Origin: Sphingomicrobium sp.
GTDB lineage: Bacteria > Pseudomonadota > Alphaproteobacteria > Sphingomonadales > Sphingomonadaceae
DNA length: 24,000 bases
Assembly: GCA_035637935.1 (NCBI GenBank)
Contig: DASRAY010000139.1
Span: 12,500 to 36,499, forward strand
Reading direction: 5' to 3'
A program made the translations under genes and the position numbers. The notes below the pieces were generated by a model. It did no database searches. It was not told where the DNA came from and worked only from the letters and a program-made list of their open reading frames with translations. Position 1 is the first letter of the stretch; each line of letters starts with the position of its first letter. Positions 7,527 to 20,847 of this stretch are shown one piece after another.

Positions 7527-9458
7527 ATGGTCGAACGGATCGTCTCGACCCCGGACGAGCCCGAGGTTCCCGACACGCCGCCGGCGACGGCCGCAGTCGC
7601 GCAGACTCAGGGCGGCGGGTCGCCGAGCGGTGACGGCCCGCCGGATGTCGCGCCGGATGCCGCAACCAGCATCGAGTTCCGGCTTGGCCGGCGGTTGCGC
7701 TGGTCGGCTCAGACCCCGCGTTACGAGCGCAAGGACGGCGACCCGGTCTACCGGCCGCTGCGGATCTACACGATCGATCCCTCGCGCAGCCGGCGCGAGG
7801 GTCAGACGGCCGAGATCAACATCCCCTACGAGCGGCTGCGCAAGGGTCCGAACGGCGCCCGTTTCCGGGTGCTGAAGGCGAAGAGCTGGCCGCTCGACAA
7901 TTACGACGACGTCGACCTCAATGCGGTCGGGCTGCTGATCAACAACGGCCGCGATCCGGCCCCGACCGATCCCGTGTTCCACCACCAGATGGTCTACGCG
8001 GTCGCCATGACCACCTACGCGATCTTCCGCGCCGCGCTCGGTCGCGAGCTGAGCTGGGGCTTCCCGGACTCCAAGCTCAACCTGGTCCCGCACGCCTTCG
8101 AGGAAGCCAACGCGCAATATGTCCGCGACCGCAAGGCGCTGCTGTTCGGCTGGTACCGGGTCGAGGCCAGCAACCGGGTCGACATGCCCGGCGGAGCGCT
8201 CATCTTCTCCTGCCTGTCGCACGACGTCATCGCGCACGAGCTGACCCACGCCTTGCTCGATGGGCTGCGCGTGCGCTTCGACCGCGCCTCCAATCCCGAC
8301 GTCGGCGGGTTCCACGAAGGCTTCGCCGATCTCGTCGCGATGCTCCAGCGCTTCACCTATCGCAATGTCGTTCGAAGCATCATCCTCAACACTCACGGCG
8401 ACCTCACCAAGGCCGGCGAATGGTCGCGGCTGGTGTACGAGCTTGCCCGCGGCAAGGGGACCAGCGCGCTGCGCTCGATCGATCTCGCCGGCGCGCACCG
8501 CTACAACCCGCAGGCCGAGGAGCATGAGCTCGGCACGATCCTCGTCTCGGCCCTGCTCGATGCGTTCGTCACCATCTACACGCACAAGTCGGCCGGGTTC
8601 ATCCGGCTCGCTACCGGCGGTCGCAAGACCCTGGCCGAAGGCGAGGCGATGTCCGCCGACCTGCTCAACGAACTGACGCACACCGCCTCGCGGCTGGCGG
8701 GCCACCTGCTGACGATGTGCATTCGCGCGATCGATTATTGCCCGCCGATCGACATCACGCTGGGCGAATATCTTCGGGCCTTGATCACCGCCGACTTCGA
8801 CCTCGTGCCCGACGATCCATGGTCGTACCGCGAGGCGCTGATCGACGCCTTCCGCAAGCGCCACATTTTCCCGGGGAGCGTTCCCGCGCTGAGCGAGGAC
8901 GCGCTGCTGTGGGACCGGCCGCGGCACAAGATTGTCATTCCCGGGCTGAACTTCGGCGAGCTTCGCTTCTCCGCCGACCCCGGCTGCGCGGCTGATGCGG
9001 CGGAGGTGCTGCGCCAGGCCCGACTGATCGGGGAGACGATTTGCCTTCCCGAGAATCTGGACACGTTCGGGCTCGCCGATCCCAAGGACAAATATTTCGC
9101 GCCGGACAAGGTCGACCCGCCGGTCATCGAGTCGGTCCGCTCGCTGCGCCGAGTCGGCCCCGACGGCCAGCTCGCCTTCGGGCTGGTTGCCGAGGTCATC
9201 CAGCGCCGCTTCGTCCAGGGCGGCGGCGGCTATCCGTCGTTCACCTTCCGCGGCGGCGCGACGATCATCTTCGGCGGCGAGGGCGAGGTCCGCTACGTCA
9301 TCGCCAAGAGCGTCAAGAGCGAAACCCGCCTGATGCGGCAGCGCGACTATACGATGAATTCGGGCGGCGACGTGTTCGCGCTCGACAAATGCCGGCACGA
9401 ACTCGGCAAGAAACGTCCCCCCCGCGGGCCCGCCGGCCGCGGCAAAGTGGAGCACTGA
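7527..9458 (+). CDS. Thermolysin-like (clan MA(E) gluzincin, M4-like) zinc metalloprotease with disordered N-terminal leader; no signal peptide
   Basis: 643 aa. VIAHELTHALLDG (HExxH at about 8235-8249), followed 22 residues after the second His by GFHEGFADLVA. This parallels thermolysin's AHELTHAV...NEA.SD arrangement (third ligand Glu). The first ~47 aa (MVERIVSTPDEPEVPDTPPATAAVAQTQGGGSPSGDGPPDVAPDAATS) are Pro/acidic low-complexity. Confidence 0.75.
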   Translation: MVERIVSTPDEPEVPDTPPATAAVAQTQGGGSPSGDGPPDVAPDAATSIEFRLGRRLRWSAQTPRYERKDGDPVYRPLRIYTIDPSRSRREGQTAEINIPYERLRKGPNGARFRVLKAKSWPLDNYDDVDLNAVGLLINNGRDPAPTDPVFHHQMVYAVAMTTYAIFRAALGRELSWGFPDSKLNLVPHAFEEANAQYVRDRKALLFGWYRVEASNRVDMPGGALIFSCLSHDVIAHELTHALLDGLRVRFDRASNPDVGGFHEGFADLVAMLQRFTYRNVVRSIILNTHGDLTKAGEWSRLVYELARGKGTSALRSIDLAGAHRYNPQAEEHELGTILVSALLDAFVTIYTHKSAGFIRLATGGRKTLAEGEAMSADLLNELTHTASRLAGHLLTMCIRAIDYCPPIDITLGEYLRALITADFDLVPDDPWSYREALIDAFRKRHIFPGSVPALSEDALLWDRPRHKIVIPGLNFGELRFSADPGCAADAAEVLRQARLIGETICLPENLDTFGLADPKDKYFAPDKVDPPVIESVRSLRRVGPDGQLAFGLVAEVIQRRFVQGGGGYPSFTFRGGATIIFGGEGEVRYVIAKSVKSETRLMRQRDYTMNSGGDVFALDKCRHELGKKRPPRGPAGRGKVEH

Positions 9459-9465
9459 GACTCGC

Positions 9466-11550
9466 ATGGCCAAACTGACCCCGCTCGAGGACCGCCGGCG
9501 CCACATCATGCACGAGGCGGCGAAACGCTGGACGGACCGGCCGCGCGGCCAGCAGGTGCGCGACCAGCTCGCGGCGCTCGGGGGTGAGGCGAGCGGCTTC
9601 GACACGCCGCTGCGCGAGAAGCAATTTGCGGAGCGGACCGCAGTGCTTCAGCAGGCCGCAGCGCTGCGTGAAGCGGGACAGCTGCCGATCGGCCTCGAGC
9701 GCAAGATCGGCGCCACCCTCGACTTCGTCGAGAACGCGCCGAGCGAGGCGGCGCGCAAGGCCGGCCGGCCGGTGGTCCGGATGGTCACCACCTGCGACCC
9801 CAAGGTCGTAGCCGTCGGCTTCGCCACCGGGTTCGTCGTCTCGCCGCGGCTGATCCTCACCAACTGGCACGTCTTTCCGGATGTCGCCCAGGCGCGCGGC
9901 AACGGCGCGAACTTCTTCTACGAGCGCGACGAGCGCGGCGTCGGCCTCGGCGAAATCTTCGAAATCGACCCCGATTATTTCTTCATGTCCAACGAGCGGC
10001 TCGATTTCGCTTTGGTCGGCTTCAAGAATACCTCGGTGTCCGGGGCGGCCCTGGCTGACGTCAATCCGATTGCCATGACTACGTCCCCGGCCAAGATCCT
10101 GGTCGGCCAGCCGGTCAACATCATCCAGCATCCGGACGGCGGCCCGAAGACCTGGGTGACGATGAACGAGAACCGGCTGATCGACATCAGCGACGAGGGG
10201 TTCCTCCAATATACGGCCGACACGCTGCAGGGCTCGTCGGGCTCGCCGGTGTTCAGCACTTCGTGGGAGCTGGTCGGGCTCCACCATTCGGGCGTCCCCG
10301 AGATGCACGACGGCAAGATCGTCTCGACCGAGGGCACCGAGTGGAACGAGGACATGGGCGACGAGAAAATCCACTGGATCGCCAACGAGGGCGCGCGGAC
10401 CAGCGCGATCGTCCGCGCGCTTGCCGAAACCCGGCTCGACGACCCGCGTCAGCAAGGCATCCTCAACAACATGCTGGTAGGGACCGCGGACCCGATCGAG
10501 CAGGTCAAGCAGTTGCTCGGCGGGACGGCCGCGGAGTCGACCGGCGCCCAGCTTCCGGCCGCCGCGGCCCCGGCGATCGGCGCCGGGGACCGGCAGATGG
10601 TGTTCACCGGGCCGGTGACGATCATCATGGGGGGTGCACAGGCAGCCGACGCGTCGGCGCCGCTCGGCGAGGCGTTCGAGCGGACCATCCAGTTCGATCC
10701 GAACTACGACGACCGCAAGGGGTACCAGGCCGACTTCCTCGGTGCCGGGCTGGCGGTGCCGGCGCCGACCGTCGCCAAGGCGCGCGACGCCGAAATCCTG
10801 ATGAAGGACGGCGCGCCGCACGTCCTCGATTATCACCATTACAGCGTCGTGCTGAACTCCAGCCGCCGGCTGCCGATGTGGACCGCGGCCAACGTCGATT
10901 ACAGCCCCGACCGCCGGAAGATCGGCGGGCGCGCCGGGTTCGGCACCGACAAATGGGTGTTCGACCCGCGCATCCCCAAGGAGGTGCAGCTCGGCGACCA
11001 GTTCTACGAGCCGGCGCACCAGTCGGACCGCGGGCATATCGTGCGCCGCCAGGACAGCGCCTGGGGCGACACCGAGCAGGAAGTCGAGTTCGCCAACTCC
11101 GACACCTTCCACTGGACCAATTGCACGCCCCAGCATGCGGCCTTCAATCGCGCCGCCGCGCCGAGCAAATATCAACTGAAGGAGGGGCTGTGGGGCGGGT
11201 TCGAAATGTACACGCAGGGCCAGCTCCAGCACGGCGACACCCGGGCCTGCATCCTCGCCGGCCCGGTGCTCGCCGCGGACGACCCCGAGGTCGACCTCGG
11301 CAAGGGTCCGGTGAAGATCCCGCGGAGCTTCTGGAAAGTCGTCGTGGTTGCAGCCGCCGACGCCAGGAAGCCGGCGCTTCAGGCATATGGCTTCCTGCTC
11401 AGCCAGGACGATTTGCTCGAGAAGTTCGGGATCGAGTTCGCGCCTGGGCGCTTCGCCAAATACCGCACGTCGCTCAAGGACATCGCCAAGGCGTCGGGGG
11501 TCGAATTCGACAAGGCGCTGCTGGCGGCGGAAGTCGCGGTGCAGGGCTAG
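9466..11550 (+). CDS. Fusion protein: trypsin-like serine protease (Trypsin_2/V8-like) + DNA/RNA non-specific endonuclease (Endonuclease_NS / NucA family)
   Basis: 694 aa. Protease triad context: LILTNWHV (His), RLDFALVG (Asp), LQGSSGSPVF (Ser). An Ala/Gly-rich linker follows. Nuclease half: YHHYSVVLNSSRRLPMWTAANV, SDRGHIVRRQD (DRGH catalytic motif, about 11026-11037), FHWTNCTPQHAAFN, GLWGGFE, KIPRSFWKVVVV. No signal peptide (MAKLTPLEDRRRHIMHEAAKRW). Confidence 0.85.
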   Translation: MAKLTPLEDRRRHIMHEAAKRWTDRPRGQQVRDQLAALGGEASGFDTPLREKQFAERTAVLQQAAALREAGQLPIGLERKIGATLDFVENAPSEAARKAGRPVVRMVTTCDPKVVAVGFATGFVVSPRLILTNWHVFPDVAQARGNGANFFYERDERGVGLGEIFEIDPDYFFMSNERLDFALVGFKNTSVSGAALADVNPIAMTTSPAKILVGQPVNIIQHPDGGPKTWVTMNENRLIDISDEGFLQYTADTLQGSSGSPVFSTSWELVGLHHSGVPEMHDGKIVSTEGTEWNEDMGDEKIHWIANEGARTSAIVRALAETRLDDPRQQGILNNMLVGTADPIEQVKQLLGGTAAESTGAQLPAAAAPAIGAGDRQMVFTGPVTIIMGGAQAADASAPLGEAFERTIQFDPNYDDRKGYQADFLGAGLAVPAPTVAKARDAEILMKDGAPHVLDYHHYSVVLNSSRRLPMWTAANVDYSPDRRKIGGRAGFGTDKWVFDPRIPKEVQLGDQFYEPAHQSDRGHIVRRQDSAWGDTEQEVEFANSDTFHWTNCTPQHAAFNRAAAPSKYQLKEGLWGGFEMYTQGQLQHGDTRACILAGPVLAADDPEVDLGKGPVKIPRSFWKVVVVAAADARKPALQAYGFLLSQDDLLEKFGIEFAPGRFAKYRTSLKDIAKASGVEFDKALLAAEVAVQG

Positions 11551-11559
11551 CGGTCGGTC

Positions 11560-12534
11560 GTGCAAACCCCCGCCGACTATGCTGCGCGGTACGAAGAGCT
11601 GACCGTGCCGTCGCTGGAGGGAAGCGCCGACCTCGCGACCGGCATCGCGGTCGACCGCTACCTGCTGAAGATCCGAGACGGCGGCTATGACGAGCGGACC
11701 CGGCTCGGACAAAAGATCCAGAAGGATCTCGCCATCCGCCGCAAGGCCGATAAGTCCGCCAAGATCCGGGTCCGGGTCGATACGCCCGGCGGAGTCGAGG
11801 AACGCGAATTCGACAAACTCGAGCTGAGCGACAGCGATCAGCTGTGGCTGCTGTTGCGCTATCCCTATACCGGCAAGGGGTCTCCCGAAGGCGTTCAGGC
11901 AATCCTGCAGCTCGCATCCGTCGAGCTCCCGGGAAGCCCGGCGATGGTCAAGCCGGCGAACTTCCAGGCCTATTGCGACAAGTGGCTCGGGCTCGATTGC
12001 AATGGCCTCGTCGGCAACTATCTGCGCCACGTGTGGAAGGGCATCCACTGGTCGGACGTTACAGCGACGGCCAGCCCGGTCAGCCCGAACAACGACATCA
12101 AGGCGATCTGGAACGGGTTTGACGGAACGGTGCGGTCGTCGGCTGCCGAAGTCAGCTTCAAGGACCTCAACCTGTTGGTGATGCTCGATCCGAAGACGGG
12201 CGAAATCAGGCCCGGCGGGCCGGGCCATCCGCCCGGCCACATCATGATCTCCCAGCCCCACGAGATCGAATACGACACCGGCCTGAAATCGATGCTTGGG
12301 GTGCCCGACGACAAGGAGGTTCCCGGGCTCATCGTCCTCGAATCGACCGGCGCCAAGGACAGCGCCGACAAGAAGGACGGCGTTGCGAAGTCGGCCTACG
12401 CCTTCGTCGATCAACTCCCGCCCAAAACCAAGGCCAACCCGAACCCGAAGCCTAACGGCGTGTTCAAGGTTCGCCGCGGACTCAATAACACCGGGCTATT
12501 CGTACGCATCAAGGGCGCTGCGTGGAGCGGGTGA
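11560..12534 (+). CDS. Putative papain-fold cysteine hydrolase (NlpC/P60- or CHAP-like) with unknown ~130-aa N-terminal domain; no signal peptide
   Basis: 324 aa, GTG start at 11560. LGLDCNGLVGNYL resembles the NlpC/P60 catalytic-Cys block (DCSGLV.y.y). PPGHIMISQPHE resembles the GHVgIy...H His block, 80 residues downstream. Coding status is strong (operon packing, composition). The family assignment rests on motifs only. Confidence 0.5.
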   Translation: MQTPADYAARYEELTVPSLEGSADLATGIAVDRYLLKIRDGGYDERTRLGQKIQKDLAIRRKADKSAKIRVRVDTPGGVEEREFDKLELSDSDQLWLLLRYPYTGKGSPEGVQAILQLASVELPGSPAMVKPANFQAYCDKWLGLDCNGLVGNYLRHVWKGIHWSDVTATASPVSPNNDIKAIWNGFDGTVRSSAAEVSFKDLNLLVMLDPKTGEIRPGGPGHPPGHIMISQPHEIEYDTGLKSMLGVPDDKEVPGLIVLESTGAKDSADKKDGVAKSAYAFVDQLPPKTKANPNPKPNGVFKVRRGLNNTGLFVRIKGAAWSG

Positions 12535-12538
12535 CGCG

Positions 12539-14728
12539 ATGGCGGTGAGTAGTGCCGACGCACCGCGATCGTTCGTCGATTTTGCACCCTTCGAGCCGTT
12601 TCTGCGCGAATATGGGACAACGATCCGGGTGCTCGAGGAAGCGCGGCAATTTGCCTCGGTCGCGCGCGACGGCGGGTCCGACGCACCGCCGGTGGCCGAA
12701 CTCGACGAGGTCGCGCTGCTGCTCGGAATCGGCTCGGTCGGGCTGGAAATGCGCGGCGTCAATTCGTCCACCACCTGGTTCGTGGAATGGCTCCAGGCCG
12801 GCGCCTTCAAGGTGGATGAAGTCCTGAGCGAACAACGTCAGCGCTCCGGGGCGTCACAGGTGCCGCTCAACGGTGCGGCAATTCCATCGGACAGCGTTCG
12901 AGCGCGAGTCCTGCCGCTCGCGGTCGCGCTCGCCCGCCGCACCGTCAACCGGGATCGTGCCGACGCGCGTCACCTCCTCTTCGCCCTGCTGAGCCAGCCG
13001 CCGGGCAACTTCGGGCCGTTCAGCGATCGGGCCGACGGGACCGCGCTCCGGCAGGCGCGGCAGATGATCGTCGATCACATCCAGTCGAGCCACGAGGAGG
13101 GCGAGGACCTCGCGGCGTGGCAGCAGTTCGTCACCGAGCCGCTGCTGGCCGAACGCGGCGCGTCGTCATCCGAGCCATCGGCGCCGTCGGAGGATGCGGC
13201 CTTCGCCGCCGGGCCCTCCCGACTATCCGAAACCGTCGGCACTTTGTCGGACGCGCCAGCGCTGGTCGACGCGCTCGGCCGGCAGGCGTTCGCCGAGGTG
13301 CTCGCGACCCGCGGCAAGCAGGTGTACGAAACGCTGCGGTCGGGGACGCTCGGCAACGATTCTGCGTTCATCCTGCATATCGATGGCCCGTGGGGCTCGG
13401 GCAAATCGTCGATCCTCAATTTCCTGAAGACCAACCTCGAACAGTCCGACCCGCCGTGGCTGATCGTCGAGTTCAACGCCTGGCGAAACCAGCAACGCTC
13501 CCCGGCCTGGTGGCCGATCATCTCCCACGTGTGGGGGGCCGTCCGCCGCGAGAGCCCCTTCAAGTTCAAGATGGCGCGCTGGGTGTGGCTCAGATGGACG
13601 ATCCGGATGCGCTGGATTCCGGTGGCGCTCAGCCTCGTGCTGACGGGTGTGCTGCTGTATTTCGCCTGGCAAGCCGTCGCCGGCCATACCGAGGGTGTTG
13701 CAGGAGCGGTCAAGGATATCGGGGCCGCGGTGCTCGCTCTGGCCACGCTCGCCGGACTCGCGCTGACCACGAGCCGGACGATTTTCTTCGGATCGAAGAA
13801 CGCCGCCGAAGCCTATGTGCAGTCGACGGTCGAGCCGTATCGGCCGATCGTCCGGCTGTACGAGCGCCTGATCGGGGCAATCGGTTGCCCGGTCGCAGTG
13901 TTCATCGACGACATCGACCGCTGCGAAGGCAATTACGTGATCGAATTGCTCGAGGGCATCCAGACTCTGCTGCGCTCAGCGCCGGTGGTCTATGTCGTGG
14001 CCGGCGACCGCAAGTGGATCTGCTCCAGCTTCGAGAAGCGTTATTCCGATTTCGGCGGGCAGATTGGCATGCCCGGCCGCCCGCTCGGCTATCTGTTCCT
14101 CGACAAGGTTTTCCAGCTGTCGACCGCGATCCCGCGCCTGTCGACGGTTCGCCAGGCCGATTATTGGAAGCGCCTGCTCGAAACCGGGGAAAACGGCGCG
14201 CGCTCCTCCCCCCGAGACGTCAAGCGGCTCGAGGCCGAGGCTGAGAAGGAGCTGGAAGGGAAGACCAGCCACGAGGAGATACAGGCGGAGATCGACCGGA
14301 CCGAGGAGGGCAGCCTCGAGCGCGAGACGATCCGCGCCGCGGCCGCGAAGCAGACCACCAGCCGCGAGGCGATGCAGGCCGCGGAGCATCGGCTGCAACC
14401 GCTGTCGCACCTGCTCGAGCCGAACCCGCGATCGATGAAGCGGCTGGTGAACGCCTATGGCCTCAACCAGGCCCGCGCGTTCCTCGAAGGGCGGACGGTC
14501 GAAGTCGAGGCGCTCGCGCGCTGGACGATCGTCGAGCTGCGCTGGCCGATCCTCGCCGACTATCTGGCGACCAACTGGAGCGACATCGCCGACCAAAGTC
14601 TGTCTGTCGCGCAATTTCCGGACAGTATCCGCGCTCTGCTTTCGGATTCTGACGTGAAGGAGGTCTTCGGGCATGACGGGGACGGCATGCCCCTCACCCT
14701 TGCGACGCTGGGACCGATCCTCGAGTGA
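12539..14728 (+). CDS. KAP-family P-loop NTPase with TM helices inserted in the NTPase domain and an N-terminal Clp_N-like double repeat
   Basis: Real start ATG 12539 (5 nt after the previous stop); the upstream part of track ORF 12296..14728 is off-frame overlap. Walker A HIDGPWGSGKSSILNFL (about 13384-13410). Hydrophobic insert WIPVALSLVLTGVLLYFAW ... AAVLALATLAGLALTT (about 13570-13790). Walker B VAVFIDDIDRC (about 13892-13925). TM segments between Walker A and B are the defining feature of KAP NTPases. N-terminal TIRVLEEARQFA...VALLLGIG and RARVLPLAVALA...ARHLLFALLSQ resemble the two Clp_N repeats. Confidence 0.85.
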   Translation: MAVSSADAPRSFVDFAPFEPFLREYGTTIRVLEEARQFASVARDGGSDAPPVAELDEVALLLGIGSVGLEMRGVNSSTTWFVEWLQAGAFKVDEVLSEQRQRSGASQVPLNGAAIPSDSVRARVLPLAVALARRTVNRDRADARHLLFALLSQPPGNFGPFSDRADGTALRQARQMIVDHIQSSHEEGEDLAAWQQFVTEPLLAERGASSSEPSAPSEDAAFAAGPSRLSETVGTLSDAPALVDALGRQAFAEVLATRGKQVYETLRSGTLGNDSAFILHIDGPWGSGKSSILNFLKTNLEQSDPPWLIVEFNAWRNQQRSPAWWPIISHVWGAVRRESPFKFKMARWVWLRWTIRMRWIPVALSLVLTGVLLYFAWQAVAGHTEGVAGAVKDIGAAVLALATLAGLALTTSRTIFFGSKNAAEAYVQSTVEPYRPIVRLYERLIGAIGCPVAVFIDDIDRCEGNYVIELLEGIQTLLRSAPVVYVVAGDRKWICSSFEKRYSDFGGQIGMPGRPLGYLFLDKVFQLSTAIPRLSTVRQADYWKRLLETGENGARSSPRDVKRLEAEAEKELEGKTSHEEIQAEIDRTEEGSLERETIRAAAAKQTTSREAMQAAEHRLQPLSHLLEPNPRSMKRLVNAYGLNQARAFLEGRTVEVEALARWTIVELRWPILADYLATNWSDIADQSLSVAQFPDSIRALLSDSDVKEVFGHDGDGMPLTLATLGPILE

Positions 14729-15818
14729 CTTGGGCGCGGCGGCCGTCGAGCCAGTCGGCGATGATCGCGGCGATGCGTGGCGCCGCCTTGCCGTCGCCGT
14801 ACGGGAAGCAGACGCGCGACATCGCCGCGTGGGCGGAGGGATCGGACAGCAGCCGGCGAGTCTCGCGCACGATACGCTCCGGTGACGTTCCGACCAGCCG
14901 CATGTTGCCGGTCGCGATCCCCTCGGGGCGCTCGGTCTTCTCGCGCAGCACCAGCAGGGGGACGCCGAGCGCTGGCGCTTCCTCCTGCATTCCGCCGGAA
15001 TCGCTCAGAATGAGATCGCAAGCGCGCATCCGTTGGACCAGCTTACGATGACCGCAGGGGTCGAGTAGTGCGACGGTCGGGCAGTCGCCGAGCAGCCGCC
15101 TAAGCGTCGCGGCGACATGCGCATTGGGCGGAACGATGACGTCGACGTGAGCCAGGGAGGCGACCTCGCGCACGGCCGCGGAAACGTTCGCGAGGCCTTC
15201 GCCCCAGCTTTCCCGGCGGTGGCAGGTGACGAGGATCGAGGGGATCGCCGGATCCCGCCGGGCCGCGGCCGGCAGCTCGTCAAGCACCGCGACGAGCGCG
15301 TCGATCCCGGTGTTGCCGGTGATGTAGACCCGGCCCGGCACGCGTTCGCAGGCGAGGTTGAAGGCGGCGAGGTCGGTCGGCGCGAACAGCAGTTCGGCGC
15401 GGGAGTCGATCTCGGTACGATATTCCTCCTCCGGCCAGGGCAGAGTGCGGTCGCGGGTGCGGAGCCCGGCTTCGATATGGGCGAGCGGGACCGTGGCTGC
15501 GAACGCGGCCCGCGCGCCGCCGAGCGCGCTCGACGTATCGCCCTGGACGATCAGCAGGTCGGGGGGCCGCGCGAGCAGCGGTCGAAGCGCCGCTTCGACT
15601 TTGCTGACGTGCGCGTGGGGATCCTCTTCGCCGGCACAGTCGAGCTGGAGCGCGGGATAAATGTCCAGGCGATGGTCGCCTGGATCGAGCGCAGCATGCT
15701 GCCCGGTGAAGATGAGCGTGGGCGCCCGCCCGCGTTCGGCGAGTGCTCGTGCGACGGGGGCGAGTTTGATTGCTTCAGGCCGGGTGCCGACGACCAGCCT
15801 TATGTCCGCGGATTGCAG
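14694..15818 (-). CDS. wecB: UDP-N-acetylglucosamine 2-epimerase (non-hydrolysing), WecB family; start codon unresolved
   Basis: The track shows only 14694..15341, but the frame stays open up to an in-frame TGA at 15857-15855. Hand translation of 15797-15342 gives LVVGTRPEAIKLAPVARAL...HIEAGLRT...WPEEEYR...FAPT, the canonical WecB N-terminal half. The C-terminal half has DSGGMQEEAPALGVPLLVLREKTERPE. There is no in-frame ATG/GTG/TTG between 15854 and 15341. I placed the start at the CTG at 15818, just after GGGGGAAGG, but this is uncertain. Confidence 0.8.
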   Translation of the reverse strand: MQSADIRLVVGTRPEAIKLAPVARALAERGRAPTLIFTGQHAALDPGDHRLDIYPALQLDCAGEEDPHAHVSKVEAALRPLLARPPDLLIVQGDTSSALGGARAAFAATVPLAHIEAGLRTRDRTLPWPEEEYRTEIDSRAELLFAPTDLAAFNLACERVPGRVYITGNTGIDALVAVLDELPAAARRDPAIPSILVTCHRRESWGEGLANVSAAVREVASLAHVDVIVPPNAHVAATLRRLLGDCPTVALLDPCGHRKLVQRMRACDLILSDSGGMQEEAPALGVPLLVLREKTERPEGIATGNMRLVGTSPERIVRETRRLLSDPSAHAAMSRVCFPYGDGKAAPRIAAIIADWLDGRRAQVTRGSVPASQG

Positions 15819-15867
15819 CCTTCCCCCTAGCTCGGCGGGGGAATTGTGCCCGGGTCAGCGCCTCAGC

Positions 15868-16149
15868 TCAACGGAAATTGTCGGCGTAGGCCTGGAGCTT
15901 GAGCCGCACGGGCGGCGCCGGGACGAGGTGGTAGGCGAGGCCATGCCGCTCGCAATAAGCGACCGCGGCTTCGCTGGTCGGGAAGGTCATCCGGACCTGC
16001 GTGTTGGTATCGCCCGAGCCGTTCCAGCCGGTCAGCGGGTCCGGGCGAAGCGCCTGCTGCCGCTCGAACTCGAGCAGCCAGCGACCGGTGTTGGCCGTGC
16101 CCGATTGGGTCGTGCGGCGATCGAGCTCGGAAATGCGCGCGACGGTCAT
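15868..16149 (-). CDS. ETC complex I subunit conserved-region protein (NDUFS4-like, PF04800-type)
   Basis: MTVARISELDRRTTQSGTANTGRWLLEFE...DPLTGWNGSGDTNTQVRMTFPTSEAAVAYCERHGLAYHLV...YADNF matches the conserved alphaproteobacterial NDUFS4 homologue pattern (QSG....W.LE.....DPLMGW..SGD...Q......F....A.AY.ER.G..Y......Y..NF). Start taken at the second Met (16149). Confidence 0.85.
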   Translation of the reverse strand: MTVARISELDRRTTQSGTANTGRWLLEFERQQALRPDPLTGWNGSGDTNTQVRMTFPTSEAAVAYCERHGLAYHLVPAPPVRLKLQAYADNFR

Positions 16150-16232
16150 CGCCGCCGCAGGTGGCAAAGACGCCGGCGCAAATCAACCTTTCGAGTTCAC
16201 ATGTGACCGAAGCTGAATTGTGATAAGCCGCT

Positions 16233-16255
16233 CCTCCTTCCGGGTCGGAAGGAGG
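16233..16255 (+). promoter_or_regulatory. Perfect 9-bp GC-rich hairpin whose 3' arm contains the Shine-Dalgarno sequence of the lipoprotein gene
   Basis: CCTCCTTCC (16233-16241), loop GGGTC, GGAAGGAGG (16247-16255). The ATG is at 16260, so the GGAGG SD is fully paired with an upstream anti-SD. It lies in a divergent intergenic region, so it is not a terminator for either flanking gene. Confidence 0.45.
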
Positions 16256-16259
16256 GCTT

Positions 16260-16874
16260 ATGAGAATTATGAAGCTTTGCGCAGGCCTCGCCGCAGGAGC
16301 GGCGCTGTTCGCCACGGCCGCGTGCAACAAGGACCAGGCGGGCAATGATGCGGCGACCGGCGGCAACGCCGCGCTCGCGGAGTCGAACCCCACCGCGTCG
16401 AGCGACCCCGTCGCCAGTGCCGAATCCGCCGCGCCGGCCGCGATCGCCCATGATGCGGCGATCGCCACCATCGACGCCACCGGCGCGATGAAGACCATCC
16501 GCGAGGGCAAGAACGGCTGGACCTGCATGGCCGACAGCCCGGCGACGCCAGGGCCGGACCCGATGTGCATGGACACCAACGCCGCGAAATGGGCCGCGGC
16601 GTGGATCGGCAAGAAGACGCCGCCGGCGGGCACGGTCGGCGTCATGTACATGCTCGAAGGCGGCACCGACGCCAGCAACACCGATCCCTATGCGACCAAG
16701 CCGACGGCAGACAACGATTGGGTGAAGACCGGGCCGCACATCATGATCGTCGGCTCGAAGGAGGTGCTCGCCGGCTATCCGTCGGGCGCGAAGCCCGACA
16801 CCTCGGCGCCCTATGTGATGTGGGCCGGCACGCCCTATGCGCATTTGATGGTGCCGGTGAAGGCGGAGAAGTGA
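16260..16874 (+). CDS. Lipoprotein of unknown function
   Basis: 204 aa. Signal peptide plus lipobox MRIMKLCAGLAAGAALFATAAC|NKD. Strong GGAAGGAGG RBS. The mature part is Ala/Ser/Pro-rich, followed by a globular domain (GWTCMADSPATPGPDPMCMD...). Confidence 0.8.
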   Translation: MRIMKLCAGLAAGAALFATAACNKDQAGNDAATGGNAALAESNPTASSDPVASAESAAPAAIAHDAAIATIDATGAMKTIREGKNGWTCMADSPATPGPDPMCMDTNAAKWAAAWIGKKTPPAGTVGVMYMLEGGTDASNTDPYATKPTADNDWVKTGPHIMIVGSKEVLAGYPSGAKPDTSAPYVMWAGTPYAHLMVPVKAEK

Positions 16875-16901
16875 ACCGCTAAGCGAAGGCGGCGGCGCCC
16901 G

Positions 16902-17627
16902 GTGAAGCGACGAAAGGGAGCGGGGGCCGATGGCCGCATCGCCGCCTGGGCGATCCATGCGCTGACCGCCGCCGGTGCGGTGCTGGCGCTGCTGGCGCTC
17001 GCGGCGATCGAGTCGGGCAGGGCGCGTGAGGCGTTGGTCTGGCTGCTCGCCGCGCTGGTGATCGACGGTGTCGACGGCACGCTCGCGCGCCACGCGCGGG
17101 TCAGTGAGCGGCTGCCGCGGATCGACGGGCCGGCGCTCGACCTGGTCGTCGATTATCTGACCTATGTGTTCGTTCCGGCCTGGTTCCTGTGGCGGCTCGG
17201 CGCGTTCCCGCCAGCAATCGCGCTGCCGCTGACGGCGCTGATCCTGCTGTCCGCGCTCTACACCTTCGCCCGGCGCGACATGAAAACCCGCGACGGGTAC
17301 TTCCGCGGCTTTCCGGCGCTGTGGAACGTCGTAGCGCTGTACCTCTACGTCGCGGCGCTGCCGCCGTGGCTCGCCGCCGCAGTCGCGATCGTCCTCCTCG
17401 TCATGACCTTCGCGCCGGTGCACGTGGTGCACCCGTTCCGGGTCCGCGATTTCGGCATCGGACCGCCGGCCGCTGCTTCAGTGTGGGGGTTGGCGACCCT
17501 GTCGCTGCTGCTGCCGCTCGACGATCGCTCACGCGGTGTCGCGCTGGGGGTGTCGCTGGCGGCCGCGGCGGTGCTCGTCGCCATGGGACTGGTGCGGACG
17601 GTGCGGGGCGCCCGCAACGACGTCTAA
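16902..17627 (+). CDS. pcs: Phosphatidylcholine synthase (CDP-alcohol phosphatidyltransferase family)
   Basis: 241 aa, GTG start, multi-TM. IHALTAAGAVLALLAL...WLLAALVIDGVDGTLARHARVSERLPRIDGPALDLVVDYLTYVFVPA carries the CDP-alcohol motif DG(x2)AR(x8-12)G(x3)D(x3)D in the Pcs-typical context. Confidence 0.8.
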   Translation: MKRRKGAGADGRIAAWAIHALTAAGAVLALLALAAIESGRAREALVWLLAALVIDGVDGTLARHARVSERLPRIDGPALDLVVDYLTYVFVPAWFLWRLGAFPPAIALPLTALILLSALYTFARRDMKTRDGYFRGFPALWNVVALYLYVAALPPWLAAAVAIVLLVMTFAPVHVVHPFRVRDFGIGPPAAASVWGLATLSLLLPLDDRSRGVALGVSLAAAAVLVAMGLVRTVRGARNDV

Positions 17628-18637
17628 TAAGCGCGGGCGATCGCGAACTCGACGGCTTCGGTCAGCGCCGCCTTCGCCTTGCCCGGCGGGAAGATCGCCA
17701 GCGCGTCGATCGCCCGGCGGCCGTAATGAAGCGCGCGATCGATCGTATCGGACAGGGCGTTCGTCGCCTGGAGCAGGCCGACAGCCTGCGCCAAATCGTC
17801 GTCCGACGAGCGCTCGCCGCCGATCGCCGAGCGCCAGAACTGACGGTCCGACTCGCTCCCCCGGGCGTAGGCGAGGATCACCGGCAGGGTCATCTTGCCG
17901 TCGCGGAAGTCGTCCCCGACGCCCTTGCCCATGGTCGCTGCGTCCGACGCATAATCAATCACGTCGTCGGTCAGCTGGAAGGCGATGCCGAGATTGCGGC
18001 CGTAACATTCGAGCGCGAGCTCGGCTTCCTCGCTCGCCTCGGCGACGACCGGGGCGACGCGGCAGGCGGCGGCGAACAGGGCGGCGGTCTTGGCGCTGAT
18101 GATCGTCAGATATTGCTCTTCGCCGGTCTCGATCCGGCGCTGCGCGGTCAGCTGCTCGACTTCGCCCTCGGCGATGACGGCCGACGCGTGGCTGAGGATC
18201 CGCAGCACCTTGAGGCTGCCGTCCTCGACCATCAGCTCGAACGCCCGGCTGAACAGGAAATCGCCGACCAGCACGCTCGCCGGATTGCCCCAGATGAGGT
18301 TGGCGGTGCGCTTGCCCCGGCGCATGCCCGAGCCGTCGACGACATCGTCGTGAAGCAGGGTCGCGGTGTGGATGAACTCGACCGCGGCGGCGAGCTTGTG
18401 GTGGCGGGTGCCGGGGTAGTCGAGCAGGCCGGCGCAGGCGAGGGTCAGCATCGGCCGCATGCGCTTGCCGCCGCCGGCGATCAGGTGGCCGGCGAGCTCG
18501 GGGATCAGCGCGACCTTGCTCTGCATCCGCTCGAGGATGACCGCATTGACCCCGTTCATGTCATCGGCGACGAGCGCGATCATCGGGTCGAGCGAAGGCT
18601 CGCGCTTGTCACGAAGCGAACGAACGGTGGCGGTCAC
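17624..18637 (-). CDS. ispB: Polyprenyl diphosphate synthase (octaprenyl-diphosphate synthase type)
   Basis: 337 aa. First Asp-rich motif TATLLHDDVVDGSGMRRG, second FQLTDDVIDY, plus GGGKRMRPML. Its 3' end overlaps the convergent pcs 3' end by 4 nt. Confidence 0.85.
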   Translation of the reverse strand: MTATVRSLRDKREPSLDPMIALVADDMNGVNAVILERMQSKVALIPELAGHLIAGGGKRMRPMLTLACAGLLDYPGTRHHKLAAAVEFIHTATLLHDDVVDGSGMRRGKRTANLIWGNPASVLVGDFLFSRAFELMVEDGSLKVLRILSHASAVIAEGEVEQLTAQRRIETGEEQYLTIISAKTAALFAAACRVAPVVAEASEEAELALECYGRNLGIAFQLTDDVIDYASDAATMGKGVGDDFRDGKMTLPVILAYARGSESDRQFWRSAIGGERSSDDDLAQAVGLLQATNALSDTIDRALHYGRRAIDALAIFPPGKAKAALTEAVEFAIARAY

Positions 18638-18675
18638 GCCGCCGCGTTAGGCGGGAGAGTGGCCGCCTTCAAGTT

Positions 18676-18810
18676 CCTCCCCGTCGCGACGCGATGGGGA
18701 GGGGAACCATGCGGAGCATGCTGGAGGGGTAACTGGCGCCGGCGCCTTCTACCCCTCCACCCTCGAATCTGCGTTCGACGGTCCCCCTCCCTGGCCTTCG
18801 GCCAGGGAGG
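18676..18810. repeat. Cluster of three GC-rich stem-loops (REP/MITE-like intergenic palindromic element)
   Basis: A: CCTCCCC (18676-18682) / GGGGAGG (18696-18702). B: TGGAGGGGTA (18722-18731) / TACCCCTCCA (18750-18759), whose loop contains GGCGCCGGCGCC. C: CCTCCCTGGCC (18786-18796) / GGCCAGGGAGG (18800-18810). Hairpin C recurs at 20948-20972. Read on the minus strand, the unit would give PLQHAPHGSPP-like pseudo-peptides, as in common alphaproteobacterial intergenic repeats. Confidence 0.6.
18786..18810 (-). terminator. Possible factor-independent terminator hairpin for the M13 peptidase gene (no U-tract)
   Basis: An 11-bp perfect stem with a 3-nt loop, starting 9 nt downstream of the stop codon (18820-18822 on the minus strand). 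No T/U run follows it, so its function is uncertain. Confidence 0.35.
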
Positions 18811-18819
18811 AACTTCAGC

Positions 18820-20847
18820 TCACCAAACGTGGACCCGCTTCTCCGGCGGCAGGTACAGCTTGTCGCCGGGCTGGACGTTGAACGCCTTGTACCAGGGGTC
18901 GAAATTGCGGACGACGCCGTTGACCCGGTACTTGGCCGGGCTGTGCTCGTTGGTCAGCAGCTGGGCGCGGAGCGCGCCTTCGCGCTGCTTGGTCTCCCAG
19001 CTGTAGCCGTAGGCGATGAAGAAGCGCTGGTCGCCGGTCAGCCCGTCGATGACCGGCGGCTCGCCGTGCTGGGCGACATATTTGCGGTACGCCGCATAAG
19101 CGACTTCGAGCCCGCCGAGGTCGCCGAGATTTTCGCCGAGCGTCAGCTGACCCTTGATGTGGACGCCCGGGATCGGCTCGTACCCATTGTATTGGGCGAC
19201 GAGCTTGTCCGCGTGCGCCGTGTAAAGCTTGGCGGTCGCCGGGGTCCACCAGTCGGTCAGCCGGCCATGGGCATCGAATTTCCGGCCCTGGTCGTCGAAG
19301 CCGTGCCCGATCTCATGCCCGATGGTCGCGCCGATGCTGCCGTAGTTGGACGCCGGATCGGCGCCCGGGTCGAAATAGGGCGGCTGGAGGATCGCGGCCG
19401 GGAAGGTGATCTGGTTCTGGGTCGGGTCGTAGTAAGCGTTGTTGGTCTGCGGCAGCATGTCCCACAGCGTCCGGTCGACCGGCTTGGGGAAACGCGACAG
19501 TAGCAGCTTCCAGTCGAACTCGTCGGAGCGGATCGCATTGCCGAGCAAATCGTCGCGCTTCACCTCCAGCGACGAATAATCGATGTACTTGACCGGGTGG
19601 CCGATGCGCGGATCGAAGGTCGCGAGCTTCTGCAGCGCGCGCGCCTTGGTCGCCTGGTCCATCCAGCCGTTGCTCTCGATCTTGTCCTTGAGCGCGGCGA
19701 GGATGTTGTCGATCAGCTCATGCATCTGCCGGTCGCTCTCCGGCGGATAGTGGCGCTGGACGTAGATCTGCCCGACGCCCTCGCCGAGCGCACCGTTGAC
19801 GAGATCGACGCCGCGCTTCCAACGGTCGCGCTGGCTGGGCACGTCGCGCAGAGTCTTCGAGTAGAAGCCGAACTTCGCGTCGTCGAACGCCTTGGGCAGA
19901 TATTGCGCGTTGTCGCTGATGAAGTGGACCGCGGTCCAGTCCTTCCAGGTCTGGAGCGGGACCGACGCGAACAGTTTCGCCTCGCCCTGAATCGCGGTGG
20001 TTTCGCCGACCACGAGCGTGTCGACGTCGCCGAGGCCGAGCTTGCCGAGCGCTCGGTCCCAGTCGAACTGCGGAGCGAAGGCGCGCAGCTTGGCGCGGCT
20101 CATCGGATTGTAGATTTTGTCGACGTCGCGGCTCTGCTCGGGCGTCCACTGAATCTTCGCGATCGCGGTCTCGAGCGCGATGACGCGGTCGGCGCGCCCC
20201 GCCGGATCGCTGATCCCGGCGAGCGTCTGGAGAGTCACCAGATAATCGCGATAGGCCTTGCGGTAGGCGTCATATTTCGCGCCCTTGAGCAGGTAATAGT
20301 CGCGGTTCGGCATGCCGAGGCCGTCCTGCGAGGCATAGGCCGAATAGTGCGTCGGATCCTTGAGGTTCGGATAGATGAAGAAGCCGATCGGGGAATCGTA
20401 ACCGGGCTCGGCGAACAGGTCGACGAGGTCGCCGCGGGTTTTCGCCGCGGCGATCCGCGCCAGATAGGGCTCCAGCGGCGCGGTGCCGAGCTGCTCGACC
20501 CGGGCCTCGTCCATCCAGCTCGCGTAGAGGTCGCCGATCTGCTGCCCTAGGCGGCCGTTGCCGCTCGGGTCCTTGGCCTGGTCCTCGACGATCGCGCGGA
20601 CGTCCTTTTCGATCTGGTCGTTGAGGACGGAGTCGATGCCAGCGAAGGTGCGGTCGGCGGCAATGTCGGTGCGCTTGAACCAGCTGCCGTTGACGTAATC
20701 GAAGAAGTCGTCGCCGGGCTTGACCGCGCTGTCCATCGCGGTCGGGTCGTAGCCCCAGCTGCCGTAGACCGGCTTGCTCGGCGCGGCGAGAGCCGGCGCA
20801 AACGCCAGCAAGCTCGCTGCGGTAAGAGCCAACATCTTGATCTTCAT
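18820..20847 (-). CDS. pepO: M13 family zinc metallopeptidase (PepO / endothelin-converting-enzyme-like), secreted
   Basis: 675 aa. Signal peptide MKIKMLALTAASLLAFAPALA|AP. N-terminal DDFFDYVNGSWF, zinc site IGHEIGHGFDDQG and downstream GENLGDLGG are all M13 landmarks. Confidence 0.9.
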   Translation of the reverse strand: MKIKMLALTAASLLAFAPALAAPSKPVYGSWGYDPTAMDSAVKPGDDFFDYVNGSWFKRTDIAADRTFAGIDSVLNDQIEKDVRAIVEDQAKDPSGNGRLGQQIGDLYASWMDEARVEQLGTAPLEPYLARIAAAKTRGDLVDLFAEPGYDSPIGFFIYPNLKDPTHYSAYASQDGLGMPNRDYYLLKGAKYDAYRKAYRDYLVTLQTLAGISDPAGRADRVIALETAIAKIQWTPEQSRDVDKIYNPMSRAKLRAFAPQFDWDRALGKLGLGDVDTLVVGETTAIQGEAKLFASVPLQTWKDWTAVHFISDNAQYLPKAFDDAKFGFYSKTLRDVPSQRDRWKRGVDLVNGALGEGVGQIYVQRHYPPESDRQMHELIDNILAALKDKIESNGWMDQATKARALQKLATFDPRIGHPVKYIDYSSLEVKRDDLLGNAIRSDEFDWKLLLSRFPKPVDRTLWDMLPQTNNAYYDPTQNQITFPAAILQPPYFDPGADPASNYGSIGATIGHEIGHGFDDQGRKFDAHGRLTDWWTPATAKLYTAHADKLVAQYNGYEPIPGVHIKGQLTLGENLGDLGGLEVAYAAYRKYVAQHGEPPVIDGLTGDQRFFIAYGYSWETKQREGALRAQLLTNEHSPAKYRVNGVVRNFDPWYKAFNVQPGDKLYLPPEKRVHVW

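Follow-up and report, generated by a model that had tools for sequence, protein, structure and literature searches.

A trypsin-NucA fusion encoded next to a contractile injection system in Sphingomonadales: a candidate latent demolition enzyme

How does a bacterium tolerate a non-specific nuclease that it appears to keep inside the cell? The question is raised by a gene in a 24,000-nucleotide stretch of Sphingomicrobium sp. DNA (assembly GCA_035637935.1, contig DASRAY010000139.1, positions 12,500 to 36,499; this whole stretch is referred to below as the window) that encodes a trypsin-like protease fused to a NucA-type nuclease, and that lies in an operon of hydrolase genes adjacent to a contractile injection system (CIS). 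Most characterised Endonuclease_NS enzymes (Serratia nuclease, Anabaena NucA, EndA and others) are extracellular or periplasmic, and Anabaena NucA has an inhibitor, NuiA; to our knowledge such nucleases are lethal in the cytoplasm, and the producers we know of either export them or make an inhibitor. We propose, with a probability of a little over 40%, that the fusion protein is a latent, self-directed demolition enzyme that is freed by proteolysis, and that at this locus it is tied to CIS production.

The fusion protein and its two active sites

The gene and the segments of its product are as follows.

9466-11550, plus strand: trypsin-NucA fusion gene, ATG start, 694 amino acids (aa); Pfam Trypsin_2 and Endonuclease_NS
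9466-9693, plus strand: N-terminal three-helix extension (aa 1-76) with AAxRW and ADSPxR motifs, apparently family-specific; AlphaFold2 (AF2) helices at 4-24, 27-38 and 48-69
9694-10521, plus strand: S1B/FAM111A-like serine protease domain with a conserved C-terminal extension (aa 77-352), triad H135, D180 and S258; Pfam and Foldseek, predicted local distance difference test score (pLDDT) mostly above 90
10522-10692, plus strand: disordered, variable linker (aa 353-409) with an FTGPVTI motif (380-386); AF2 pLDDT below 50
10693-11547, plus strand: EndoG/NucA-type beta-beta-alpha-Me nuclease domain (aa 410-694) with DRGH (H524), N552, N561 and E580; Pfam E value 2e-39, Foldseek match to EXOG, and alignments

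Spurious open reading frames (ORFs) are abundant at the 67% G+C of the window; the ORF of the fusion has a G+C of 0.90 at third codon positions and 0.46 at second positions, which is the pattern typical of a real gene. Trypsin_2 spans residues 120-272 of the product (E 9.3e-21, 75.5 bits against a cut-off of 27.6), and Endonuclease_NS (PF01223) spans residues 449-685 (E 2e-39, 136 bits against a cut-off of 23) and covers model positions 14-220 of 223. By the order of its triad, its GxSGxP motif and its profile score, the first half is predicted to be a chymotrypsin-fold serine peptidase (clan PA), and by profile score and a DRGH motif with the catalytic His, the second half is predicted to be an Endonuclease_NS enzyme of the Serratia/NucA/EndoG type. 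An initial annotation of this DNA, made by a model from the letters alone, had described a single polypeptide with both halves and intact catalytic motifs; Pfam and Foldseek agree with the architecture, and the motifs withstood alignment. Those of the protease are TNWH135V, LD180FALV and GSS258GSP, and those of the nuclease are D521-R-G-H524 followed by TN552CTPQ, FN561R and WGGFE580. Nine of these residues (H135, D180, S258, D521, G523, H524, N552, N561 and E580) are invariant in 58 close homologues with 45-91% identity, and are at least 95% conserved in 80 species-level homologues with identities down to 32%; R522 of the DRGH motif is at least 90% conserved in the 58. These alignments indicate that purifying selection maintains both active sites in about eight phyla.

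In weak pairwise alignments, E580 falls on the catalytic Glu of Anabaena NucA and Serratia nuclease. In the reference enzymes the Mg-ligand Asn (Serratia N119, NucA N155) is followed eight residues on by this Glu (E127, E163), whereas the fusion family has a specific insertion of 7-11 residues, relative to NucA, Serratia nuclease and EndoG, between N561-R562 and W576...E580 (window positions 11146-11205, aa 561-580). N561-R562 corresponds to NucA N155-R156 only if an 11-residue insertion is set after N561-R562, and HMMER put the gap elsewhere. Because the alignments are weak and the insertion follows the invariant N561-R562 pair, the equivalence of N561 to the metal-ligand Asn of NucA and Serratia nuclease is likely rather than proven. 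The family also has an invariant Cys553 beside N552.

The AF2 model (pLDDT 77; predicted template modelling score, pTM, 0.53) contains three N-terminal helices, a confident protease, disorder at 353-409 and a moderately confident nuclease, in which confidence drops exactly at the DRGH loop and at the loop 544-552. Foldseek searches with this model match the protease half to FAM111A, V8, Spl and Esp with fold E values near 1e-11, the top match being the FAM111A serine protease domain. By both sequence and fold the protease resembles S1B enzymes (V8, Spl, Esp, exfoliative toxin) and FAM111A, and the nuclease resembles EXOG and EndoG. With the S1B enzymes (V8/GluV8, Spl, Esp and the exfoliative toxins) and FAM111A the protease half shares the chymotrypsin fold, the His-Asp-Ser order and GxSGSP, although it is only 14-20% identical to them, is predicted to be cytoplasmic and carries family-specific N- and C-terminal extensions.

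The initial annotation joined the two halves by an Ala/Gly-rich linker of about 90 aa. There is indeed a linker, but the disordered part is about 55 aa long (353-409) and is flanked by conserved extensions, with WIANEGxRxS (304-313) behind the protease and FDPxYxxRxGY (410-420) ahead of the nuclease. Among the 58 close homologues the conservation of FTGPVTI is 90% or more, and across 80 species only P383 is kept. The same motif gives a BLAST match (E 1.7) to the C-terminus of the HExxH peptidase encoded just upstream, which we took as chance, the peptidase stretch being a well-conserved ungapped C-terminal block.

The N-terminal extension is kept across phyla, and it does not resemble a signal. 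No N-terminal hydrophobic segment is present in the fusion or in any of about 80 homologues, including those of Bacillus, and there is therefore no Sec or Tat signal; the fusion protein is predicted to be cytoplasmic, and the initial annotation had been correct in finding no export signal. The nuclease half resembles Serratia nuclease, Anabaena NucA and EndoG/EXOG in its score above the PF01223 threshold, the DRGH His, the Glu and probably the Asn position, and its fold match to EXOG, but differs from them in its predicted cytoplasmic location, in being fused to a protease, in lacking a NuiA-like inhibitor and a signal or targeting peptide, and in having the 7-11 residue insertion and Cys553.

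A widespread and mostly solitary family

The survey of domain architecture and genomic neighbours that the initial annotation had suggested uncovered a large family of uniform layout with no recurrent neighbour. A cluster search of 5.8 billion proteins (E at most 1e-5) returned 547 clusters homologous to the fusion; among the 120 matches listed, all 118 full-length clusters have the same two-domain architecture, and two are fragments with the nuclease alone. Scanning a single genome for each species placed the family at no fewer than 590 genomic loci in about eight phyla, and among the matches listed are Alpha-, Beta- and Gammaproteobacteria, Acidobacteriota, Planctomycetota, Bacteroidota, Actinomycetota (Arthrobacter) and Cyanobacteria. 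The distribution is patchy, with the gene in about 0.3% of species, and it also occurs on megaplasmids of Bacillus cereus, B. thuringiensis, Paenibacillus, Sinorhizobium NGR234 and Nostoc. A phage origin was considered and rejected, there being no match in 50,697 phage records, and no GC anomaly indicative of a compositional island was found.

Three analyses bear on the company that the gene keeps. First, all-against-all BLAST clustering of ORFs within 6 kb at about 77 loci gave no recurring partner gene beyond close relatives. Second, the spacing and orientation of the nearest genes, from rough gene calls, likewise revealed no recurring partner, and the fusion is mostly monocistronic. Third, in a Pfam tally of 101 immediate neighbours of fusion homologues the commonest family is present in just three. 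No immunity or inhibitor gene emerged from these analyses, either in the window, as first annotated, or family-wide, and neither the BLAST clustering nor the Pfam tally gave a recurrent secretion system or transporter gene. Housekeeping genes surround many of the homologues: in Xaviernesmea oryzae and Bradyrhizobium canariense the fusion is a lone gene amid metabolic genes, and it is stably syntenic in nine Mesorhizobium species. Genes for peptidoglycan-binding proteins, SpoIID/LytB, two S8 peptidases, a PGRP-type amidase and a further endonuclease surround the homologue in Bacillus cereus. The fusion family is autonomous, a self-contained protease-nuclease without a conserved inhibitor, partner or secretion system. 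This is not the arrangement of a toxin-immunity or polymorphic toxin system, as there is no co-conserved neighbour and the N-terminal domain is not common to other toxins.

The N-terminal domain was searched separately as a profile against 1.84 billion representative proteins, and only 40 matches were obtained, most of them short fragments or family members of about 700 aa. Of ten matches of intermediate length that were scanned, eight have Trypsin_2 starting at residue 105-142 or thereabouts; of the remaining two, one is without a Pfam match and the other is an unrelated protein with multiple repeats. With so few matches, and with trypsin at the same spacing in eight of the ten, we rejected the idea that the extension is a promiscuous adaptor or packaging domain; it appears to be specific to the fusion family.

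These observations bear on two explanations that require neither a CIS nor suicide. One is that the protein is a scavenging or virulence factor that leaves the cell by a non-classical route (a C-terminal signal for a type I secretion system, vesicles or lysis) and acts outside it, as the location of most characterised Endonuclease_NS enzymes would lead one to expect. We consider this improbable, since signal peptides are missing from diderm and monoderm members alike, no transporter gene recurrently adjoins the gene, and the helical N-terminal extension is conserved without being signal-like. The other is a housekeeping role with nucleic acids, such as removal of DNA-protein crosslinks by the combined protease and nuclease in the manner of FAM111A. 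Here the top structural match, the frequent housekeeping surroundings and the stable synteny in Mesorhizobium are as expected; however, the FAM111A match is no better than those to secreted S1B proteases, the distribution is patchy and frequently on megaplasmids, the nuclease is of the sugar-non-specific type, and in the Sphingomonadales clade described below the gene shares an operon with hydrolases of cell wall and protein. This role seems to us quite improbable.

The architecture itself is not new, as the initial annotation had implied it to be. Jablonska et al. 2017 (PMC5714182) noted that nucleases of the Endonuclease_NS group are often coupled with Trypsin_2, and speculated that coupling to a peptidase serves virulence, a suggestion that would accord with action outside the cell. 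Kaur, Burroughs, Iyer and Aravind 2020 (eLife 9:e52696; PMC7159879) predicted computationally a NucA-peptidase conflict system, their System 3; the section that describes it reports trypsin and NucA that are sometimes fused, a mostly alphaproteobacterial set of 45 organisms, peptidoglycan-attacking co-effectors, an optional NTPase, predicted proteolytic activation of the nuclease and, in a subset only, an EAD1 adaptor between components. By its sequence the fusion belongs to this NucA-trypsin family described in silico in 2020. The window locus resembles System 3, as set out in that section, in its core of trypsin-like peptidase and NucA, here fused, and in the addition of peptidases and a peptidoglycan-attacking enzyme. 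There are also differences from that account. The operon enzymes are a metzincin, a thermolysin-like peptidase and an Amidase_2 protein, whereas S8, lysozyme and papain-like enzymes are named there; the 45 organisms compare with our at least 590 loci in about eight phyla, mostly lone genes; neither a Pfam scan of the operon proteins nor the N-terminal profile search found a shared adaptor domain or a transmembrane (TM) fusion; and the System 3 section does not describe strict linkage to a CIS. A PADLOC search for known defence systems matches, within the fusion, only the protease domain (to RT-Protease_XI) and recognises no multi-gene system, and an NCBIfam search gave nothing.

The Sphingomonadales operon and its contractile injection system

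In one clade the gene is not solitary. In all six independent genomes of this Sphingomonadales clade, in which the fusions are 53-97% identical, it is the last gene of an eight-gene plus-strand operon. The remaining features of the window locus are as follows.

184-2009, minus strand: CarboxypepD_reg-domain protein and tail sheath (Pfam), the first two genes of a divergent CIS operon
2412-5667, plus strand: u1, u2 and u3, of no known family; u1 with a signal-peptide-like N-terminus, u2 with TM segments at both ends, u3 soluble with a disordered N-terminus
5686-6420, plus strand: Amidase_2 peptidoglycan amidase without signal peptide (Pfam E 3.8e-11)
6425-6709, plus strand: 94-aa protein with a 26-aa motif in common with the metzincin N-terminus
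6709-7521, plus strand: metzincin (HELGHVLGFRHEH), Pfam Astacin and Peptidase_M10, weakly similar to M10/astacin, conserved in the clade
7527-9458, plus strand: thermolysin-like HExxH...E metallopeptidase of 643 aa (HELTH...FHEGFAD), ending 7 nt before the fusion
11560-12534, plus strand: 324-aa gene, CIS-associated, starting 9 nt past the fusion stop
12539-14728, plus strand: KAP-family NTPase (Pfam KAP_NTPase), starting 5 nt past the 324-aa gene

The fusion is assigned to the operon because only 7 nt separate it from the upstream gene and because, in the clade member labelled L001, the stop codon of that gene overlaps the fusion start codon. The HExxH peptidase is co-conserved with the fusion in L001, L004, L006, L007 and L095, and u1-u3 are kept at 30-71% identity in L001, L004, L007 and L095. 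The TM segments of u2 enclose a domain of about 285 aa, and the disordered N-terminus of u3 is Ser/Thr/Pro-rich; these three proteins may form an envelope complex for anchoring or lysis. None of the four operon hydrolases (amidase, metzincin, thermolysin-like peptidase and protease-nuclease) has a signal peptide, and BLAST detects no similarity between operon proteins. The 94-aa protein and the metzincin N-terminus do have a 26-residue motif in common, xVxVdGxxxyvxxGDxLLD (hhalign probability 90.6%), and the position of the 94-aa gene is conserved in L001, L004, L095 and at a further locus, L092. By its sequence this motif may be a pro-domain, an inhibitor or a homotypic adaptor element.

The CIS operon is only entered at the edge of the window, and its remaining genes are seen in a contig identical to the window region (L086, positions 9348-19577). 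The cluster is unusually compact, with about 11 genes in about 10 kb; it opens with the CarboxypepD_reg-domain protein, and beyond the sheath it continues with a gp19-type tube, two unknown proteins, a VgrG-like spike, a 115-aa protein, gp25, an 850-aa baseplate protein and two small proteins. Its Pfam matches include no AAA+ ATPase, tape measure or terminator. Besides the window, five genomes have the CIS and the hydrolase operon arranged head to head: Sphingomonas horti MAH-20 (GCA_009753715.1), a Sphingomicrobium metagenome-assembled genome (MAG), two metagenomic genomes (79% and 53%) and a 97% MAG. MAH-20 is a cultured strain with the entire locus, in which the fusion is 55% identical and u2 only 32%. 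The outer flanks differ among all six genomes. Because the linkage survives both this large divergence and the rearrangement of the flanks, it argues for a functional coupling of the CIS and the operon in this clade. By contrast, 75 of the 80 species-level homologues have neither CIS genes nor any of the clade's operon genes within 10 kb. A search with u3 for an annotated plasmid copy of the locus gave no match.

The suggestion in the initial annotation that the protein is exported by the contractile system therefore stands in part: the strict linkage in six genomes supports it, but the 75 homologues without a CIS and the presence of the family in Bacillus and Arthrobacter do not. Its fuller form is that the fusion is a payload or toxin: four signal-less hydrolases, this one among them, would be carried on or inside the CIS and delivered into competitors or into eukaryotic prey. 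In the producer the nuclease would be kept inert by the protease domain or by the N-terminal extension, which would make the protein a self-immunising pro-toxin. Such a payload would be expected to travel with its machine, and the CIS and operon are always adjacent and divergent in the six genomes notwithstanding 53-97% fusion identity and different outer flanks; likewise, the operon hydrolases lack signal peptides, and the CIS-associated 324-aa gene is found at either end of the system, suggesting that both flanks are one unit. There is precedent as well. Toxins associated with extracellular CISs include endonucleases, peptidases and peptidoglycan hydrolases (PMC8213781; PMC11297309), and Pne1, a non-specific nuclease effector of the metamorphosis-associated contractile (MAC) arrays of Pseudoalteromonas, was shown experimentally to be delivered (Rocchi et al. 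2019, 10.1101/543298). Both Pne1 and the fusion are non-specific nucleases encoded beside a contractile system with no immunity protein described, although Pne1 belongs to PF13930 (Endonuclea_NS_2) and has no protease domain, whereas the fusion belongs to PF01223, is a candidate for such delivery, and has relatives that mostly lack a CIS. Several points speak against a payload, the leading alternative to the demolition reading, which we regard as somewhat unlikely. Most of the family lacks a nearby CIS, as noted, and the family is found in Bacillus, Paenibacillus and Arthrobacter; there is no immunity gene for either the amidase or the nuclease; Pfam recognises neither DUF4157 nor an AAA+ loading ATPase in the CIS cluster, although N-terminal packaging signals of the PVC type lack a consensus by which to search for them; and the amidase/metzincin/HExxH module exists without a CIS, beside caspase and NACHT proteins.

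This last point emerges from the HExxH peptidase, whose family comprises 3,660 clusters and has no Pfam family. At L092 it is found with only the small protein and the metzincin, amid housekeeping genes; at L093 it lies behind Amidase_2-caspase fusion proteins; and at L094 it is clustered with a muramidase, an astacin, Amidase_2-caspase, CHAT-NACHT, caspase and caspase-STAND-WD40 proteins. In Rhizobium etli it is fused to an S8 peptidase, beside a cell-wall hydrolase and a MoxR ATPase, and in Hymenobacter it lies between an AAA ATPase and an MBL hydrolase. Neither a CIS nor a secretion signal is involved in any of these contexts, which are those of the conflict systems, centred on NTPases and caspases, that Kaur et al. 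described. The peptidase looks like a widespread, unnamed component of such systems. The recurring theme is functional and not orthologous: one or more proteases, a nuclease and a cell-wall hydrolase, none with an export signal.

Downstream of the fusion the picture is less constant. The fusion, the 324-aa gene and the KAP gene are probably co-transcribed here, because the spacings are 9 nt and 5 nt and there is no terminator-like site between them. The initial annotation had proposed that either the protease domain or the KAP NTPase controls the nuclease; in a broader form of the latter idea, the NTPase, with or without the 324-aa protein, would sense a signal and control release. In addition to the probable co-transcription, NTPases are an optional part of the NucA-peptidase systems as published (PMC7159879, System 3 section), and KAP proteins act in defence systems, PADLOC giving single-domain matches of this one to QatA, PifA and PDC-S20; its score against the QatA equivalog is 91 bits, far below the cut-off of 600. 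However, the window and the 97%-identical MAG L006 are the only places where KAP adjoins the fusion; it is absent from the other four of the six clade genomes (L001, L004, L007 and L095) and from 75 other loci. L004, the 79% relative, has the same downstream synteny as the window (an Epimerase_2 fragment, NDUS4, polyprenyl synthase, an M13 peptidase and a two-component system), and there the slot (12304-14951) is filled by Mrr_cat and N6_N4_Mtase genes; in L001, L007 and L095 the downstream flanks are different. The site between the fusion and the Epimerase_2 fragment is thus, in these comparisons, a variable slot of the defence-island type, and because it varies between close relatives, the KAP NTPase is better read as a lineage-specific insertion than as an obligatory controller. 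A KAP-centred defence system of the QatA/PifA kind that includes the fusion is not indicated either, NTPase and effector failing to co-occur across these loci. The comparative data make an obligatory role untenable, and we consider control by KAP very improbable. The Epimerase_2 (UDP-GlcNAc 2-epimerase) ORF itself (14694-15341, minus strand) matches only model positions 144-346 of 347; it has the features of a 5'-truncated remnant bordering an accessory region, and the same truncation is seen in L004.

The 324-aa gene has a different affiliation. Its homologues share contigs with the operon in many metagenomes; in one genome it is at the far end of the CIS cluster and without a KAP gene, a further point against joint control with KAP; and it is absent beside the fusion in L001, L004, L007 and L095. 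We therefore rejected it as a candidate nuclease inhibitor, being absent beside the fusion in four clade members and elsewhere at the opposite CIS end, and by its distribution its family is assigned to this type of CIS. AF2 predicts its structure confidently (pLDDT 96.6, pTM 0.93), with no significant match among PDB folds or the viral folds of BFVD, and D146-C147, H227 and E261 are invariant in the family, which suggests a Cys-His enzyme of undescribed fold. Between the window and L006 its identity is only 73%, against 95-98% for the neighbouring genes, suggesting fast or diversifying evolution.

Latency, release and demolition

We return to the proposal of a self-directed demolition enzyme. 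The full-length fusion would be a latent pro-enzyme with its nuclease restrained in cis, since a non-specific nuclease is predicted to stay in the cytoplasm with no partner gene to restrain it. A trigger would lead to cleavage in the linker by the fusion's own protease domain, which is the obvious release device because it is invariant, lies in the same chain and is joined to the nuclease through a disordered segment; the two metallopeptidases whose genes immediately precede that of the fusion might prime this cleavage. Once released, the nuclease, together with the protease, would degrade the producer's own nucleic acids and proteins as a suicide or demolition step, amounting to abortive infection, programmed death or autolysis. 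In this Sphingomonadales clade, death or lysis would be coupled to the production or release of the CIS, for example with lysis freeing the particles, and a KAP NTPase would not be needed. Self-directed action is the parsimonious reading because the fusion and the operon modules occur elsewhere without a delivery machine, the modules often beside caspase or STAND proteins, and proteolytic release of a latent nuclease, which the initial annotation had also proposed, is the same inference as that drawn for this architecture in the System 3 section of Kaur et al. 2020 (PMC7159879).

Several considerations weigh against this proposal. First, for every member of the family the mechanism is drawn from sequence and context. 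Second, the AF2 model, with its pTM of 0.53, gives no confident inter-domain geometry. Third, neither FTGPVTI nor E405 is conserved family-wide, such that no universal cleavage site is visible. Fourth, many homologues lie amid housekeeping genes and not in defence islands, and the PADLOC matches (RT-Protease_XI; QatA, PifA and PDC-S20) are to single domains and not to a multi-gene defence system. Finally, the tight linkage to the CIS in this clade is equally expected of a payload.

A further reading combines the two. The CIS and the eight-gene operon would be one machine, and the protease-nuclease an immunity-free pro-toxin that is held inert by its N-terminal and protease module and undergoes autoproteolysis only after firing, in either the injected target or the sacrificed producer. 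We think this unlikely as a whole; if true, it would represent a CIS-coupled, zymogen-based demolition kit that replaces toxin-immunity logic.

The new points here are how broadly the family is distributed, that its genes usually stand alone, and the Sphingomonadales variant in which it joins a multi-hydrolase operon strictly coupled to a compact CIS. With the nuclease apparently kept inside the cell and no partner gene, control must be built into the polypeptide, and the family would offer a compact system in which to study how a suicide nuclease is controlled in the manner of a zymogen, its pairing of protease and nuclease paralleling the apoptotic pairs HtrA2/EndoG and caspase/CAD. The Sphingomonadales layout links a CIS to dedicated hydrolases of cell wall, protein and nucleic acid, and so bears on how such particles may be released and armed.

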